Source: Escherichia phage ECOH1. Taken from it: DNA of 64,000 bases. The notes under the pieces are model-generated. The model was not told the DNA's origin. It ran no database searches and saw only the letters and a list, made by a program, of their open reading frames with translations. The stretch lies in the sequence record ON540300.1; one strand, written 5' to 3'. A program made the translations under genes and the position numbers. This document shows, one piece after another, positions 1 to 49,713 of this stretch (position 1 is its first letter; the number at the start of each line of letters is the position of its first letter).

Positions 1-1110
1 AGAGATGCCCCTTAACATTTTCTTAACAATTTCTTAACAATCCCTACATAGTTATGCTTTTAAGGCACTTGTTAGAGACTTGTTAGCCCCTTGTTAAATC
101 TCTGTTAAGACCACGTAAAAGCCTTGTAAGAGTCTTTAGCATAGCCTTTAAAGCCTCTGTAAAGCTCTATAAAGAGGTATCTATACAGTTGGGGTGTAAT
201 TCTAGGAAGAGACTTAAAAGAGCTTACAAGGAGCTATAGAGAGCTTTTAAGAGGGCTATTTAGAGAATCACTAAGAGGGAAAGGGAACGATAAGGAAGAG
301 ATAGTGACCATGTTAATAGCTTGTTAAAAAGATTAAACACTTGTTAGAAACTTATTAATTACCTTAACAAAATAACTCTTAAAAATTAACTTGTTAGCTC
401 TTGTTAGTCATCTGTTAAGATTCTGTAAAGCACTATCAAGCCTTGTTAAGAAACTGTTACGTTCTTGTTAGTTATGTTAAGAATCTGTTAAGACCTTTGG
501 AGAGTTGTTAAGAAGATGTGAGAACTGTTAAGAGATTGTTAAGGATATTTTAAAATTTTGCAAAGGGGGTGTTAAGGAGCTGTTAAGGGCTACCAAGCAG
601 ATATACATCCTAGACAGATATTTTTCAGTTCCTTCAAAGACCCTAAAAAATGACTTGATAGTCCTATTTTATAAAAATTTTAAGATTCTGAATAATTACC
701 TAGACAGTCTTTTAAAAATACAGGCATAAACAGGCTTATAAGATACCTTGTTAGTACCGTGTTAGACCTTGTGAGATAAGGTCTGTAAAGATATTCCTGT
801 TAAGTTTGTTAAAACAGTCTATATAGAGGCTTAGTAGTGCCTAGTGAACACCTATAGAGAGTATCATAGCTGACATAGAGATTAAGGGGTGTATAGAGGC
901 TTCTAAGAGCGTATAGAGAGATGGTTAAGGTGATTGTATAGGTTGTTAAGATGGCTTGTTAGAAGAGTGTTTAGAAGGCTTATTAAAGGGCTATTTAGAA
1001 GGGTTATACAGAGGGGCTATTAAGACCACTAGATAGTTACTAAGATACTATATAGTATTATATAACTATATAGAGAGTAAGATTAAGAAGGTTGTTAAGA
1101 AGGATAGATA
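1..1110. repeat. ORF-free array of more than 30 short degenerate motifs (C/T)TGTTA(A/G)(G/A)A in both orientations, interspersed with TATAGAG-type motifs
   Basis: Read directly: tcttaacaa at 32-40 and 42-50, ttgttaga 70-77, ttgttaaat 91-99, ctgttaaga 102-110 and 412-420, ttgttaaga 505-513 and 1091-1099, many others; no ORF >=60 aa in track. Confidence 0.7.
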
Positions 1111-1163: not shown

Positions 1164-1195
1164 TAAAAATTAAAAAGCCCCCAATTAAGGAGGCT
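1164..1195 (-). terminator. Rho-independent terminator after leftward gene 1207..1800
   Basis: Minus-strand hairpin AGCCTCC-ttaatt-GGGGGCT followed by T-run. Confidence 0.6.
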
Positions 1196-1206
1196 CTTAA
1201 GATATT

Positions 1207-16093: not shown

Positions 16094-16114
16094 TTCTATT
16101 TGCGGAGGTGCTTA

Positions 16115-17716
16115 ATGGACTTAAATGCTGTTAAGCAGAAGCGAGTGGAAGATGTTAGGAAAGTCCTAGCTGGAGAGTTGGGGCTTTCTGATGAAGTAAA
16201 AGAAATTATCAAATCATTCGGTAAAGACCCCTCTAAATTCCTTCCAACTCAAATTCTGACTTTATTAAGATACACACCAGACCAAGTTAGACTTATCTTC
16301 AAATTGATGACTGATAAGAACTATGTAGCCCCTCAGCCGGGTTCTCAAGAGGTCTTTTTAAATACTAATGCTGACTTGGTTCTCTATGGTGGTGCTGCGG
16401 GTGCTGGTAAGACTGCTGCATTGTTGATGGATTCTTTAAGATTTATTGAAGACCCTAACTATAATGCTGTGTATTTCCGTCGAAACACGACACAGTTACA
16501 AGGTGGTTTATGGCCTGCTGCAAAGAAACTATTTGGTAAGTTTGGTGGGGTTCCTCACGAGCAGAAGATGACTATCACATTCCCTTCTGGGGCCACTATC
16601 AAGTTTACCTACCTAGAACTTGAAAAGCACGCTGAAGGTCATCAGGGTATTGAATACTCAGCTATTTACTTTGACGAAGGTACGCACTTCTCTGCTTCAC
16701 AGATTTCATACCTACAGACTCGTCTACGTTCTGGGGCTGAAGGTGATTCATACATGAAGATTTCTATGAACCCAGACAGAGACCATTTTATTTACGATTG
16801 GGTAGAGCCATTCTTAGATGAAGAAGGTTACCCAGACCCTGAAAAGTGTGGTCGTATTCGTTGGTATGTAATGAATGATGGTGTTATGGTTTCTGATTGG
16901 GAGAGAGACAAGATTCTTGAAATGTTTCCTCTTGAGATTCCTCAAACATATACATTCATCTCTGGTACGATTGATGATAACCCAATTCTTGACTTCTTAG
17001 AACCTAAATATCGTGGTAAGTTGGAAAACAACACCCCTGTAAACGTTGCAAGACTTCGTTTCGGTAACTGGAAGGCTCGTGCAGAAGGTTCAAACTATTG
17101 GCAAAGACAATGGTGTGAAATTGTTGATTCACTTCCAGAAGATGTATTCGATGTCAGAGCATGGGACTTAGCAGCAACTTTACCATCTGAGATTAACCCT
17201 AATCCAGACTGGACAGCAGGTGTTAAGATGGGTAAATCTAAAAAAGACGGTTGCTATTATATCATTGATGTAGTAAGATTTAGAGATAGACCCTCTGGAG
17301 TCGAAACACAAATTAATTTGACTGCTGAAAGTGACGGTAAGCGAACTGGTATTTTTATCCCTCAAGACCCAGGCGCTGCTGGTAAATCCTACGCAACATC
17401 CCTCATCAGGAAACTTGCCGAGAAAGGTTATCGAGCAAGGGCTAAACCAACAAATAAAGATAAAGTTACCCGATTTGCGGGGTTTTCTGCTGCTTCTGAA
17501 GCTGGACTTGTAAAAGTCTTGAGAGGTAGTTGGAACGAAGCTTACTTCCAAGAACTTGAAGGTTTTTGTGGTGATGGTAAAACTAAAGATGACCAAGTGG
17601 ATGCTACCAGTGATGCTTTCAACAGTCTTAACGAAGTTAAATTATTCAAGCCACCATCAATGGGTGCTCACACAGACTTAGTGAGAGGAAACCCATATGA
17701 GGGGCTTAGACGTTGA
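16115..17716 (+). CDS. terL: terminase large subunit
   Basis: Walker A LYGGAAGAGKTAAL; GGAGG RBS 6 nt before ATG 16115 (track start 16100 is TTG); about 534 aa. Confidence 0.85.
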   Translation: MDLNAVKQKRVEDVRKVLAGELGLSDEVKEIIKSFGKDPSKFLPTQILTLLRYTPDQVRLIFKLMTDKNYVAPQPGSQEVFLNTNADLVLYGGAAGAGKTAALLMDSLRFIEDPNYNAVYFRRNTTQLQGGLWPAAKKLFGKFGGVPHEQKMTITFPSGATIKFTYLELEKHAEGHQGIEYSAIYFDEGTHFSASQISYLQTRLRSGAEGDSYMKISMNPDRDHFIYDWVEPFLDEEGYPDPEKCGRIRWYVMNDGVMVSDWERDKILEMFPLEIPQTYTFISGTIDDNPILDFLEPKYRGKLENNTPVNVARLRFGNWKARAEGSNYWQRQWCEIVDSLPEDVFDVRAWDLAATLPSEINPNPDWTAGVKMGKSKKDGCYYIIDVVRFRDRPSGVETQINLTAESDGKRTGIFIPQDPGAAGKSYATSLIRKLAEKGYRARAKPTNKDKVTRFAGFSAASEAGLVKVLRGSWNEAYFQELEGFCGDGKTKDDQVDATSDAFNSLNEVKLFKPPSMGAHTDLVRGNPYEGLRR

Positions 17717-39137: not shown

Positions 39138-39216
39138 TCCCTTATTGACTGATTGTTAAGATGGTGTTAATATTCTTTATGGGTATTCTCACCATCTTGG
39201 CTGATGAGGTGATTAA

Positions 39217-42412: not shown

Positions 42413-42742
42413 TTAATCTGCCAACCTTAAATTAAAATTAACACCAAATTTTTCACATACTTCCAACATAAACTCAAGAGAGACATTACCAGTGAGGTTG
42501 ATTATGTTGGATACACGAGCTTGAGAGATACCACAAATCTTAGCAACTTGCTCTTGAGAAAGACCTCTGGATTTAATCTCTCTCTTAAAACGATGTGCAA
42601 CGAAGTCTCTCATTTCGTCTACATCCATTGGACAAATATAACTCTCCATTTCAGCTTCTCTGTCAGCCTCCCAATCATCTTGTGGAGCATAAGGGTCAAA
42701 AACCTCATTCATCTTTCTTCTTCCGTTTACGTGAAGCATCAA
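42413..42742 (-). CDS. XRE-family helix-turn-helix DNA-binding protein
   Basis: C-terminal LSQEQVAKICGISQARVSNI is a typical HTH_3 segment; acidic N-terminal 45 aa. Confidence 0.65.
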   Translation of the reverse strand: MMLHVNGRRKMNEVFDPYAPQDDWEADREAEMESYICPMDVDEMRDFVAHRFKREIKSRGLSQEQVAKICGISQARVSNIINLTGNVSLEFMLEVCEKFGVNFNLRLAD

Positions 42743-46955: not shown

Positions 46956-49685
46956 TCAATGTACCTCCAACCAGCTCTTACCAACCTTTGCTGTACCAGT
47001 TACAAGTGTTTCTTTCCTCAAACCTAAGTTTTTTGAAGCTTGTCCATACATCCAGTCAGCAATTGCTTTCATATCCTGTGTCATACCCTCTGGACATTCC
47101 CAACTATTTTCATCGTGATATGCCAGAAGTAACCTTGCTCCGATAGCTGGTTTTCGAGCATTCAGTTTTGTCAGGCCATCTTCACAGGCTTTTCTTGCTG
47201 CTAGGTTGATAGCCTCATTCTGAATCTGTGCTTCCGAACTCATCAGGAGGTAGTTCAGTAGTTTATGTGGAGATTTGCACCATATCCATGCTCCAGCGAC
47301 CCTGATATAACCACCTTTAGCAATTGAAGAATTCTTCCCAAAAACCTCTTCCAGAGCCTTTTTAGACGCCTTAAAATCGGCTTCTAAGCTATCAAGTAAC
47401 TTCTTAATCTTTGGCAGACGCATATAGTAAGTTTGTTTAGTCAATGCACCCTCTTCCGTAGATGATGCCTTGATAGTTTTTGCAAACTTCTCGTCTCCGG
47501 CTCCAAATAACAGGGCGTAGATGCCATTTTTGCTCTTCTTACGACCTTTTGTAATCTCGTGAAGAAGTTCCTCATCCTGTGTCTCCCTGCAACGAACAAT
47601 ATCCTCTTCTTTGTTAAGACCAAAGTAAATACTGTTCAGTGTATGCGCATCAGTCCCTGTGTAGACTTCATAGAGGTCATTTTCAGCATCATAACGCAGA
47701 TACTTGTCAGTTTCTGGGTTAAGATACTTGTCAAGATGTTTACAGTAGTATCTACCATCATCTTGCTTAGTGAACTCCACTGACTCTTTACCCTCAGTTA
47801 CCGCTTTAGTGAAGTCTTCATCACCCATAAAGTTACAAAGGAGAACTAGCTGGGCTGAGTTTTGGTCAACAGAAACAATGTTAGTCCCCTCTTCACAAAT
47901 CCACACTGCCCTCATAGGTGCTCCGTAGACAGCAGCACCAGACGGTACGTTTACAATACCATACTGTGTCATACGTCCAGTTGAAGTACCAAACACCATT
48001 GCACCAGCACTAAGGCGACCATCAGGACGAATCTGGTTCAACCAACCTTTTTCATCATCCTTTGAGTTCTCAATAGTTCTGCGTCGGTGCATCAAAGTAT
48101 AGTACTTTGCAATCTTCTGTCCAAGTTCACCTTCAATCGTATCATAAGATGACTCAGTAAGCTTTGGTGAAGTACGGATTAAGCAAGGCTCAAGCAAATC
48201 TGTGTACTTCTTCACAGACCAGTTATGCTCAATGTACTGTATACCTTCATGTTCAACATAACTCAAACCACACCGCTCAACCATTTCCTGCCACTTAGGA
48301 TGTTTTGTAATCATCTTTTTATTGTCTTTGAAACGACAAACTTTGACAGGGCGACCGTCTGAGTCTTTCTTGTAGTTCCAGTCATCTGGAATCCAACCAA
48401 CTGATTTCAAGTAGTCTTTAACAACGGCTACCTGAGTCATACGAGAAACTTCAAACTCAATTGGTGTATATGGTGCATCAATCAAACCTGTGTAGCGACT
48501 TGACTCAAGTTCAAAGTGGTTAACAACGTGACTGTTATAGTACTTCACAGTCTTGACTGTTTTTACTGGTTTCCAGTCTTTGCATTTCTTACCAATCTTT
48601 GCGTTCAACTCATTGCAAATTGCACGAGCATCCTTCATTGCTACAAAACCTTCCTTGTACTCTTCACCAGTTACAGTGTTGGTTGGTGTATAGCAATTTC
48701 TCTTTTCAATGTTAAAAATCTTTGTAGTTGGCTTACCAAATGGTTTAATTTCGTATGTCTGCATCTCACCATTACGTACCTGCTGACGATACTTTGTCTT
48801 AGGGTACTTGGTAATTCTCTTCAGTCCATCTGCATGACCAAATGTTTCAACATACTCATTCCAAGCTTTTGCAAACTCTTCTCCAGTGACTTTACCTTTG
48901 GTCTTAATAGTTGGAGGCAGGTGTGGTTCAACCTCTGAAGCAAGCTCATTAGTCAACTTGTCAAGTTCCTTTACATGGAACTCCATAAGCTCTTTATCAG
49001 CTTTCCAGCCATTGATAGCTTGTTGACTCATCCAGAAAGATGTTTCTTTAGCTCGCATATAGGTTTCATAAGTGTCTATGCCACACTTCTTTAGCTTCAG
49101 ATATTCATTATCCAGTGCGCGTTTAGTTTTGGCGTTAATACGGATATCTTCTACAACACGAGTGAAGATTTCTGCATTCCACACACCCCAATGTTCAATC
49201 TCTGGTTTACGGACACCAACACGAGCACCCCATGCAGCCAAACCATGAGCACCTTTATAACCCTTTGGAGTTGGTCTATCCATCCACTGAACACGAGACT
49301 GGATAAGAGAATCCTGAAAGAAATTACTCCACGGCTTGCACTTTGGATTATCAAAGTTCCATAAATCAGGTGCAATGTGATTGAAAACCCACCAGTCATA
49401 ACCCAGACCATTATGGATGCAAAGTCGTTTTGCCTTTAACGCAAACTCAATACCTTCACGTAAGCCACCCTTGATGTACTTGGTATACTTGTGACCGAGG
49501 ATAGGTTCATCTGTAAAGACCCATACAGGTGGCTCTTCATCGTCAGATTTATAGTCTGCGAAAGCCATTACGTGCACTTTAGTGAACTCAAGGAGTAAAC
49601 CATCAGTTTCTGTATCACCAACCAAATGTAAGTTTTTAAAATCTACGTTTTCCATTTTTACTCCCTCTAAAATCATTAACCTCAT
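46956..49685 (-). CDS. family A DNA polymerase with 3'-5' exonuclease domain
   Basis: Exo motif GDTETDGL; pol motifs VDQNSAQL, K...YALLFGAG, YHDE. Confidence 0.85.
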   Translation of the reverse strand: MRLMILEGVKMENVDFKNLHLVGDTETDGLLLEFTKVHVMAFADYKSDDEEPPVWVFTDEPILGHKYTKYIKGGLREGIEFALKAKRLCIHNGLGYDWWVFNHIAPDLWNFDNPKCKPWSNFFQDSLIQSRVQWMDRPTPKGYKGAHGLAAWGARVGVRKPEIEHWGVWNAEIFTRVVEDIRINAKTKRALDNEYLKLKKCGIDTYETYMRAKETSFWMSQQAINGWKADKELMEFHVKELDKLTNELASEVEPHLPPTIKTKGKVTGEEFAKAWNEYVETFGHADGLKRITKYPKTKYRQQVRNGEMQTYEIKPFGKPTTKIFNIEKRNCYTPTNTVTGEEYKEGFVAMKDARAICNELNAKIGKKCKDWKPVKTVKTVKYYNSHVVNHFELESSRYTGLIDAPYTPIEFEVSRMTQVAVVKDYLKSVGWIPDDWNYKKDSDGRPVKVCRFKDNKKMITKHPKWQEMVERCGLSYVEHEGIQYIEHNWSVKKYTDLLEPCLIRTSPKLTESSYDTIEGELGQKIAKYYTLMHRRRTIENSKDDEKGWLNQIRPDGRLSAGAMVFGTSTGRMTQYGIVNVPSGAAVYGAPMRAVWICEEGTNIVSVDQNSAQLVLLCNFMGDEDFTKAVTEGKESVEFTKQDDGRYYCKHLDKYLNPETDKYLRYDAENDLYEVYTGTDAHTLNSIYFGLNKEEDIVRCRETQDEELLHEITKGRKKSKNGIYALLFGAGDEKFAKTIKASSTEEGALTKQTYYMRLPKIKKLLDSLEADFKASKKALEEVFGKNSSIAKGGYIRVAGAWIWCKSPHKLLNYLLMSSEAQIQNEAINLAARKACEDGLTKLNARKPAIGARLLLAYHDENSWECPEGMTQDMKAIADWMYGQASKNLGLRKETLVTGTAKVGKSWLEVH

Positions 49686-49713
49686 ACATTACTGCAAAAA
49701 ATTATAAAAAGCA

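Follow-up and report, generated by a model that had tools for sequence, protein, structure and literature searches.

The left edge of the DNA analyzed here, a 64,000-nucleotide stretch of Escherichia phage ECOH1 (ON540300.1; hereafter the window), is occupied by a dense array of short motifs built on TGTTA, in DNA that holds no open reading frame (ORF) of 30 or more amino acids from position 1 to 1206. The first gene follows at 1207–1800 on the minus strand. The initial annotation of this DNA had described an ORF-free array of 1.1 kb; the lack of ORFs is upheld, while the non-coding stretch extends to 1206 and not to 1110. Judged by comparison with related phages, this stretch is the left genome-end module, composed of a direct terminal repeat (DTR) of about 590 bp (approximately 7–594) and some 610 bp of adjoining unique non-coding DNA. 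The array is genuine, conserved and far from random, and the terminal repeat with its flank accounts for its position in the genome; its molecular role we infer from these properties. The parts of the module are given below, a slash marking the border of the repeat.

1–6, no strand: unmatched first bases AGAGAT, which align with no relative
7–594, no strand: DTR-homologous segment, 20 plus-strand and 4 minus-strand TGTTA cores, 34% G+C
9–41, minus strand: left-border array, CCCTTAACA followed by three 11-bp units CTTAACA(A/T)TTT, the motif being inverted at the terminus
67–110, plus strand: cluster I, four direct CTTGTTAR units at an exact 11-bp spacing
111–307, plus strand: low-density stretch of looser units (CTGTAAAG, CTATAAAG, CTTAAAAG, GCTATAGAGAG, AAGAGGG) with no exact TGTTA
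308–589, plus strand: cluster II, 16 plus-strand cores and 1 minus-strand TGTTA core, consensus (C/T)TGTTAAGA, spacings of 9–11, 20 and 31
570–607, plus strand: right DTR border, TGTTAAGGAGCTGTTAAGGGCTACC/AAGCAGATATACA, the last motif copy being TGTTAAGGGCTA
595–745, no strand: motif-free spacer just inside the left DTR copy, 27.8% G+C, conservation 0.915, two copies of CAGATAT
746–1110, plus strand: cluster III, 7 TGTTA cores and 5 TATAGAG, all on the plus strand
1173–1198, minus strand: terminator-like hairpin that ends the leftward gene block and forms the inner limit of the non-coding module

Motif excess and helical phasing

The consensus of the repeated unit is (C/T)TGTTA(A/G)(G/A)(A), which can also be written (C/T)TGTTAAG(A), a motif of 7–8 bp. 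Its TGTTA core occurs 31 times in 1–1110 (24 copies in 7–594 and seven more in 746–1110), with 27 copies on the plus strand and four on the minus strand against the 1.84 per strand predicted from the rest of the window, and the more than 30 copies in both orientations that had first been reported are thereby borne out. The exact 8-mer TGTTAAGA is present 11 times in 1–1110, compared with 5.1 copies expected over the whole 64 kb. First-order Markov simulations of the region itself predict 0.5 plus-strand and 0.3 minus-strand occurrences of YTGTTARR, where 17 and 3 are found; allowing one mismatch, the same simulations predict 8.1 and 5.4, where 38 and 10 are found. The AT-rich composition does not explain the excess, because the YTGTTARR counts exceed those of the region's own simulations, and the concern of the initial annotation that motif frequency might not rise above the expectation for such DNA can be set aside. 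TATAGAG, the second recurrent motif to have been singled out, is confirmed as well, seven of its nine copies in the window falling in 165–1075. The array is dense, as described, but it does not fill the 1.1 kb evenly: the copies are clustered at 9–41, 67–110, 308–589 and 746–1110, and there are none in 595–745.

The spacing of the motifs is as distinctive as their number. Pairs of the form TGTTA-N6-TGTTA occur 14 times in the 64-kb window, where 0.31 are expected, and 13 of the 14 lie within 13–764. The autocorrelation of the region at a lag of 11 reaches 0.405, compared with 0.280 ± 0.0135 in shuffled sequences, and this peak has harmonics at 21–22 and 31–33. Neighboring sites are usually 11 bp apart, the longer distances cluster at 20, 31, 42, 51–53 and 62, and the period that best fits the site distances is 10.2–10.4 bp (about 10.3 bp), that of the helical repeat. 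Because the distances fit this period, the sites keep to the same side of the helix for several turns. Among 59 blocks of 1.08 kb, the region has the highest predicted intrinsic curvature, a modest rise (z = 3.3 relative to shuffles); the estimate comes from a first-order wedge model with the wedge angles of Bolshoy et al. (1991) and gives weak support.

The only TGTTA-N6-TGTTA pair outside the end module sits at 39140–39175, where TTGACTGATTGTTAAGATGGTGTTAATAT, lying between a tail-fibre-like gene and the ORF that follows, makes a good sigma70-like promoter; one such pair is at chance level.

The inner limit of the module is set by the hairpin at 1173–1198, and the homologous site carries a terminator annotation in phage ASO1A. 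An Rfam scan of 1–1300 found no RNA family, its sole match being sub-threshold and located on this hairpin. A 42-nt stretch at the hairpin (1171–1211) is 86% identical to 49653–49692 in reverse orientation, at the polymerase-side boundary of a gene block, and on this similarity the terminator sequence appears to have been reused at the two positions.

The terminal repeat of Felix O1-like phages

ECOH1 is a Felixounavirus, a genus made up of the Felix O1-like myoviruses that infect Escherichia, Salmonella, Shigella and Citrobacter, and nearly all of the relatives of the module belong to it as well. The first 1200 bases of the window match 255 phage records, and in 214 of these the alignment covers no less than 80% of the query, at 80–94% identity; the best match is 94% identical and the collection holds no identical record. 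The record of phage Ro111lw opens and closes with the same 613 bp, the two copies being 100% identical, and these align to window positions 8–594. The ZX4221 record ends at the base homologous to window position 594, and the records of I14.1, ECP2307, SPJ41 and Ro111lw start or end at one shared left base. Published lengths agree with this extent: Bal31 digestion with run-off sequencing put the terminal repeat of UAB_Phi87 at 608 bp (PMC4837284), PhageTerm put that of Pr103Blw at 581 bp (PMC8303462), and short terminal repeats were inferred for Felix O1 (PMC3185647). Borders defined by homology give 614 bp in one relative and 558–658 bp in others. The segment at approximately 7–594 can be taken as the terminal repeat because it is homologous to the end copies of Ro111lw, to the record ends and to repeats of published length. 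The DTRs described in the Ounavirinae (UAB_Phi87, Pr103Blw and Ro111lw) are homologous to it and lie in the same position between convergent terminal gene blocks.

The borders themselves are shared. In relatives the left border reads ...AAATGCTA/GCCCCCTTAACA (that is, ...CTA/GCCCCCTTAACA) and the right border TGTTAAGGGCTACC/AAGCAGATATACA (TGTTAAGGGCTACC/AAGC), and the segment at approximately 7–594 is 88–94% identical to their DTRs. The 23-mer at 585–607, which spans the right border, is found exactly in 27 IMG/VR contigs, including those of Moogle and SUSP2. At the position of bases 1–6, the sequence of the relatives includes a GCTAGC that is absent from the window, and GAGATGCCCCTTAACATTTTC is found in no IMG/VR contig; AGAGAT may be real junction sequence of ECOH1, or an artefact of the record end. 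Since approximately 7–594 is homologous to the terminal repeat of relatives, the window begins at, or a few bases from, the physical left end. The left-edge position first assigned to the array is therefore the edge of the genome or very near it, and the array is not otherwise cut. Where the assemblies of relatives were opened elsewhere, the homologous DNA forms a non-coding gap of 1.5–1.7 kb between two convergent gene blocks, both of which end in terminators, and some of the GenBank records tag “repeat_region” features within it.

Comparison with related phages, as initially recommended, shows that the array is present and conserved across four genera of the Ounavirinae. These genera, Felixounavirus, Mooglevirus, Suspvirus and Kolesnikvirus, all retain both motif and phasing, with 20–30 plus-strand and 5–11 minus-strand TGTTA per roughly 1.5 kb, compared with about 3–4 per kb on both strands together in the flanks of the module, and with a lag-11 autocorrelation of 0.36–0.41 against 0.27–0.28 in shuffles. 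Erwinia phages share just 76–86 alignable bases with the window; in one of them, vEam_W_25, a 401-bp exact terminal repeat is filled with TGTTAAGA. The right border of that repeat reads GCGGCCAC/TAAGTAGATATACA, where TAAGTAGATATACA resembles the Felix-type AAGCAGATATACA closely.

Evolution is slower in the motif cores than in the bases around them. In an alignment of 19 sequences, TGTTA cores defined in the window are 0.958 conserved, compared with 0.854 elsewhere. Because cores defined in the window carry an ascertainment bias, the test was repeated with cores taken from five sequences of other genera and identity measured only among 14 Felixounavirus sequences; these cores show an identity of 0.965–0.985, compared with 0.92 over all columns (permutation p ≤ 3e-4). 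Units are gained and lost among relatives: the left-border array (conservation 0.94) holds 2–5 CTTAACATTTT units, cluster II contains a 31-bp higher-order repeat of three units whose copy number differs, and 22-bp AAAGTTACGTAAAAGGGGCTAT units vary as well. The layout is common to all genera, running from three inverted left-border copies through the direct clusters and the motif-free conserved spacer to a mixed cluster of TGTTA and TATAGAG.

The arrangement is mirrored about the repeat. The last motif copy at the right border, TGTTAAGGGCTA, is the inverted counterpart of the left-border TAGCCC(CC)TTAACA, so that the outermost copies form an inverted repeat. Over 18 relatives, TATAGAG is found 11 times on the plus strand and 69 times on the minus strand upstream of the DTR, and 60 times on the plus strand and never on the minus strand downstream. 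Because TATAGAG is inverted across the repeat, the two virion ends look alike when read inward, each presenting end, repeat and TATAGAG set in turn. Such mirror symmetry suits a function tied to the ends themselves.

Some further features of these loci were noted in passing. The end module of SUSP2 (locus L007, 1331–2997) has 34.7% G+C and resembles that of the genera with 39% G+C, while Suspvirus genomes are about 47% G+C, a figure given for Suspvirus mistaenkt (bioRxiv 10.1101/2020.01.19.911818). A palindromic insert of 24–29 nt, ATGAG(G/A)TAG..TCTA(C/T)CGAATC, is present or absent among relatives at two sites of the end module, one after the equivalent of window position 610 (L019, L023, L034, L038) and one in the right-unique region (L021, L008); it may represent a very small mobile hairpin element. 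Immediately ahead of the left DTR border, relatives carry a repeat family of about 22 bp, AAAGTTACGTAAAAG(N)GCTAT, in 1 to more than 6 copies (L003, 2930–2998), the place of which is taken in Erwinia phages by about 11 units of the CTTCTAAG type. The vEam_W_25 record (PP079183.1) ends with AGATCGGAA directly 3′ of its 401-bp terminal repeat (L011, 2251–2259); by its sequence this looks like an Illumina adapter remnant at the true physical end.

A proposed packaging role and its alternatives

We consider it somewhat probable that the region is a cis-acting genome-end module of phased protein-binding sites that is used in recognizing, cutting and packaging the ends. The location at the terminal repeat, the motif excess, the helical phasing, the constraint on the cores and the mirror layout are the observations on which this reading builds; protein binding, the identity of the binder and a role in cutting and packaging would follow from them. 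The iterated binding sites that had first been suggested are consistent with the conserved motif, the phasing of one site per turn, the constrained cores and a layout kept over four genera, with binding itself proposed from this pattern. The phased copies would be sites for a sequence-specific DNA-binding protein, probably the recognition partner of a T4-type large terminase. An oligomeric protein that coats or wraps the DNA is proposed because the sites are phased, oriented, conserved and short; such a binder would cover the junction in the concatemer from one side of the helix, and the resulting nucleoprotein structure would mark the junction for the terminase and set the conserved borders as the places of the two cuts that form the ends. 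Through the inverted border copies, one strand would be nicked at one border and the opposite strand at the other, giving the 5′ ends GCCCCCTTAACA and GGTAGCCCTTAACA, both of which are seen in the records of relatives. Fill-in synthesis after nicking would then duplicate the repeat, as in the model proposed for T7, where nicks on opposite strands and fill-in synthesis account for terminal-repeat duplication.

The window encodes a T4-type large terminase, TerL, with Terminase_6N and Terminase_6C domains at 16100–17716. Neither Pfam nor PHROGs recognizes a small terminase upstream of TerL or in the genes flanking the module, and Felix O1 and UAB_Phi87 are likewise without a recognizable small terminase (PMC4837284). 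An XRE-type helix-turn-helix (HTH) protein at 42413–42742 on the minus strand is the sole DNA-binding protein recognized among the genes tested, and nothing links it to the motif.

Among known systems, the ends of T7 provide a parallel, and the comparison with its terminal repeats that was drawn at the outset fits: approximately 7–594 is homologous to the exact DTR of relatives, and T7 ends carry a comparable array of CCTAAAG. In the T7 sequence examined, the exact repeat is 160 bp long and positions 1–400 contain 15 copies of YHTAAAG, mainly CCTAAAG, so that there too a 7-bp motif recurs some 15 times inside and just beyond a terminal repeat, mostly in one orientation and in non-coding DNA, and there too the function of the array is unexplained. 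These T7 arrays were reportedly named SRL and SRR by Dunn and Studier in 1983. The differences are several: CCTAAAG recurs at 13 bp and is not helically phased, whereas TGTTAAG recurs at 11 bp and follows a period of about 10.3 bp; the T7 ends carry about 15 copies and the present array 30–35; early promoters adjoin the T7 array, where terminators stand on both flanks here; and T7 packages with the gp18 small and gp19 large terminase, compared with a T4-like TerL and no recognizable small subunit. Since the two differ in motif and spacing, in the number of copies, in the signals that flank them and in the packaging proteins, the T7 array is analogous and not homologous. In the pacL and pacR boxes of SPP1 and the R sites of lambda cosB, several phased short sites lie on bent DNA beside the cut site, and an oligomeric recognition subunit that binds them brings the nuclease into position. 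Those systems have 3–7 sites in 100–250 bp and a known small terminase, in contrast to more than 30 sites over 1.5 kb and no recognized TerS here.

Several points weigh against a packaging role. The right end of the roughly 87-kb genome lies outside the 64-kb window and the repeat is known by homology only; bases 1–6 are without a match in relatives; and the invariance of the border 23-mer arises partly by ascertainment, the loci having been fetched with that 23-mer. Symmetry between the borders is approximate in Felix-like phages, where the reported cuts fall 6 and 8 nt from the motif, and is missing from the Erwinia phage. Pfam and PHROGs searches of the genes upstream of TerL and on both flanks of the module placed all of them in families of unknown function and gave no candidate for binding the motif, and more than 30 sites over 1.5 kb far exceeds known terminase recognition sites. 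In T7, insertions at most end loci, including the short-repeat arrays, are tolerated (bioRxiv 10.1101/2024.10.10.617714), and for that reason such arrays may be dispensable.

A promoter array was tried as an explanation and rejected because no gene reads outward from the region. The region has 9 sigma70-like matches where 4.7 ± 2.0 are expected, and the complement of the motif, TTAACA, mimics a −35 element.

The initial annotation had also entertained a replication origin, in which a phage initiator would bind the repeats as iterons, with the AT-rich 595–745 as the unwinding element. Many direct, site-like repeats do lie beside this stretch of 27.8% G+C, as in iteron origins, and predicted curvature is above that of every other 1.08-kb block in the window. 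Iterons, however, are normally 17–22 bp long and few in number, whereas the units here are 7–8 bp and very numerous. Transcription converges on the region from both sides, although origins usually sit at points of divergence, which in the window are found at about 8 kb and about 50 kb, with the skew minimum near 8 kb. DnaA boxes are not in excess, there being one 1-mismatch box at 1113 and a window total below chance; the flanking genes show no initiator, helicase-loader or other domain recognizable by Pfam or PHROGs; and the primase/helicase and polymerase genes are some 45–55 kb distant. An origin would also provide no rationale for a mirror layout about the terminal repeat. The convergent transcription, the lack of DnaA boxes and the lack of an adjacent initiator gene in particular lead us to regard an origin as unlikely.

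The same location at the ends could serve a purpose besides packaging, either the control of DNA ejection and entry through a stop or pause like that of T5, or the loading of a protein that shields the ends from host exonucleases. The layout reads inward identically at both virion ends, the terminal genes point towards the ends, so that no early promoters are located there, and the Felixounavirus Bas63 is reported to be without a RecBCD inhibitor (bioRxiv 10.1101/2024.10.10.617714). Against this, the region has no Chi sites and two-step transfer is not described for Felix O1-like phages in the literature searched, and such a role seems improbable.

Would an array of this kind need a sequence-specific function at all? 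Slippage and unequal exchange could generate degenerate tandem DNA in a tolerated gap, which might at most supply curvature or act as a spacer, and the variation in unit copy number among relatives and the just modest rise in predicted curvature (z = 3.3) would be in keeping with this. Yet the core motif, the phasing and the layout persist in lineages whose DNA no longer aligns, the motif cores are more conserved than the spacers, and the orientation bias is strict, all of which makes neutral repetition quite improbable.

The geometry of the sites brings to mind a host response regulator of the OmpR/PhoB class, for which PhoP is the best sequence match, that would lend architectural help in the manner of IHF at lambda cos or be titrated by the sites as a decoy. 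The PhoP box is a direct repeat of a hexamer with 5 nt between, (T/G)GTTTA-N5-(T/G)GTTTA, which is bound head-to-tail, and footprinted Salmonella PhoP boxes include the half-sites GGTTAA and TGTTAAG (PMC3335776). The module resembles these boxes in placing a 6–7-bp core head-to-tail every 11 bp, with 13 TGTTA-N6-TGTTA pairs in 13–764, and every known host belongs to the Enterobacterales. Scored with a weight matrix built from 20 footprinted boxes, seven sites in 1–1110 do as well as or better than the median real box under leave-one-out scoring (a density of 6.3 per kb, compared with 0.17 per kb in the rest of the window), the matrix being of low information and scoring any TGTTxA-N5-TGTTxA pair well. 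The core, however, is TGTTAA and not TGTTTA; arrays here run to 5–8 consecutive units, compared with one or two dimer sites; and the sites lie away from promoters, with no gene reading out of the region. Similar 4-copy TGTTAA clusters also occur in unrelated viral contigs from other environments, so that many proteins may read such tandem sites, and we judge a PhoP-class binder very unlikely. If it were true, each replicating genome would carry dozens of box-grade sites, which would recruit the regulator for end formation, or titrate it and blunt the envelope-stress programme of the host.

These clusters emerged from a scan of IMG/VR for four phased copies of TGTTAR. Outside the Ounavirinae, most of what it returned was perfect 11-nt microsatellites, together with a few intergenic clusters of 4 copies and no second large array. 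The intergenic clusters of four TGTTAA copies at an exact 11-bp spacing and with non-identical spacers are found in unrelated IMG/VR loci (L070/L130/L137, L049/L074/L148, L085/L053 and L078/L101); on this pattern, direct repetition of TGTTAA at one-turn intervals seems to be a format of protein site that recurs in other phages.

A partition centromere (parS- or parC-like) for a plasmid-like stage, the remaining suggestion of the initial annotation, has an array of repeated sites as its sole support and is highly implausible, as the phages of the Felix O1-like group are virulent with defined linear ends, the flanking genes tested include no ParA- or ParB-type genes, and the one HTH protein of the window (42413–42742, minus strand) is XRE-type with a ParB-HTH score below the family cut-off.

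Significance for Felix O1-like phages

The content of short palindromes provides a separate observation on this genome. GATC is absent from positions 1–64000, compared with 190 ± 12.6 sites in shuffles, and 27 six-base palindromes (among them AGATCT, ATCGAT, ATGCAT, TGATCA, GAATTC and CTGCAG) have 0–1 copies where 8.6–21 are expected. A 45-kb locus of Bas63 is likewise without GATC, and the Felix O1 genome paper does not mention its absence.

Felix O1-like phages are classic Salmonella typing phages that are now used in biocontrol and, in the case of Bas63, as genetic models. The literature on Ounavirinae DTRs gives the repeat length alone; the array is not described in the papers on Felix O1, wV8, Moogle, UAB_Phi87 and PAK_P1, the preprint on PhageMaP in Bas63 is silent on the region, and a full-text literature search with the motif string returned unrelated papers only. 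The anatomy of the terminal repeat, comprising the motif, its phasing, the inverted elements at the borders and the mirrored outer motif TATAGAG, thus appears undescribed in the papers searched.

A terminal repeat previously reported as a length alone is thereby given an anatomy that is conserved across a whole subfamily. For annotators it provides a sequence signature by which the real ends of the genome can be located in Felixounavirus records, many of which are permuted. It also makes three questions testable: how a T4-type terminase without a recognizable small subunit finds and cuts unique ends, what purpose is served by the short-repeat arrays at phage ends that have gone unexplained since the T7 sequence, and where phage ends can be safely engineered.

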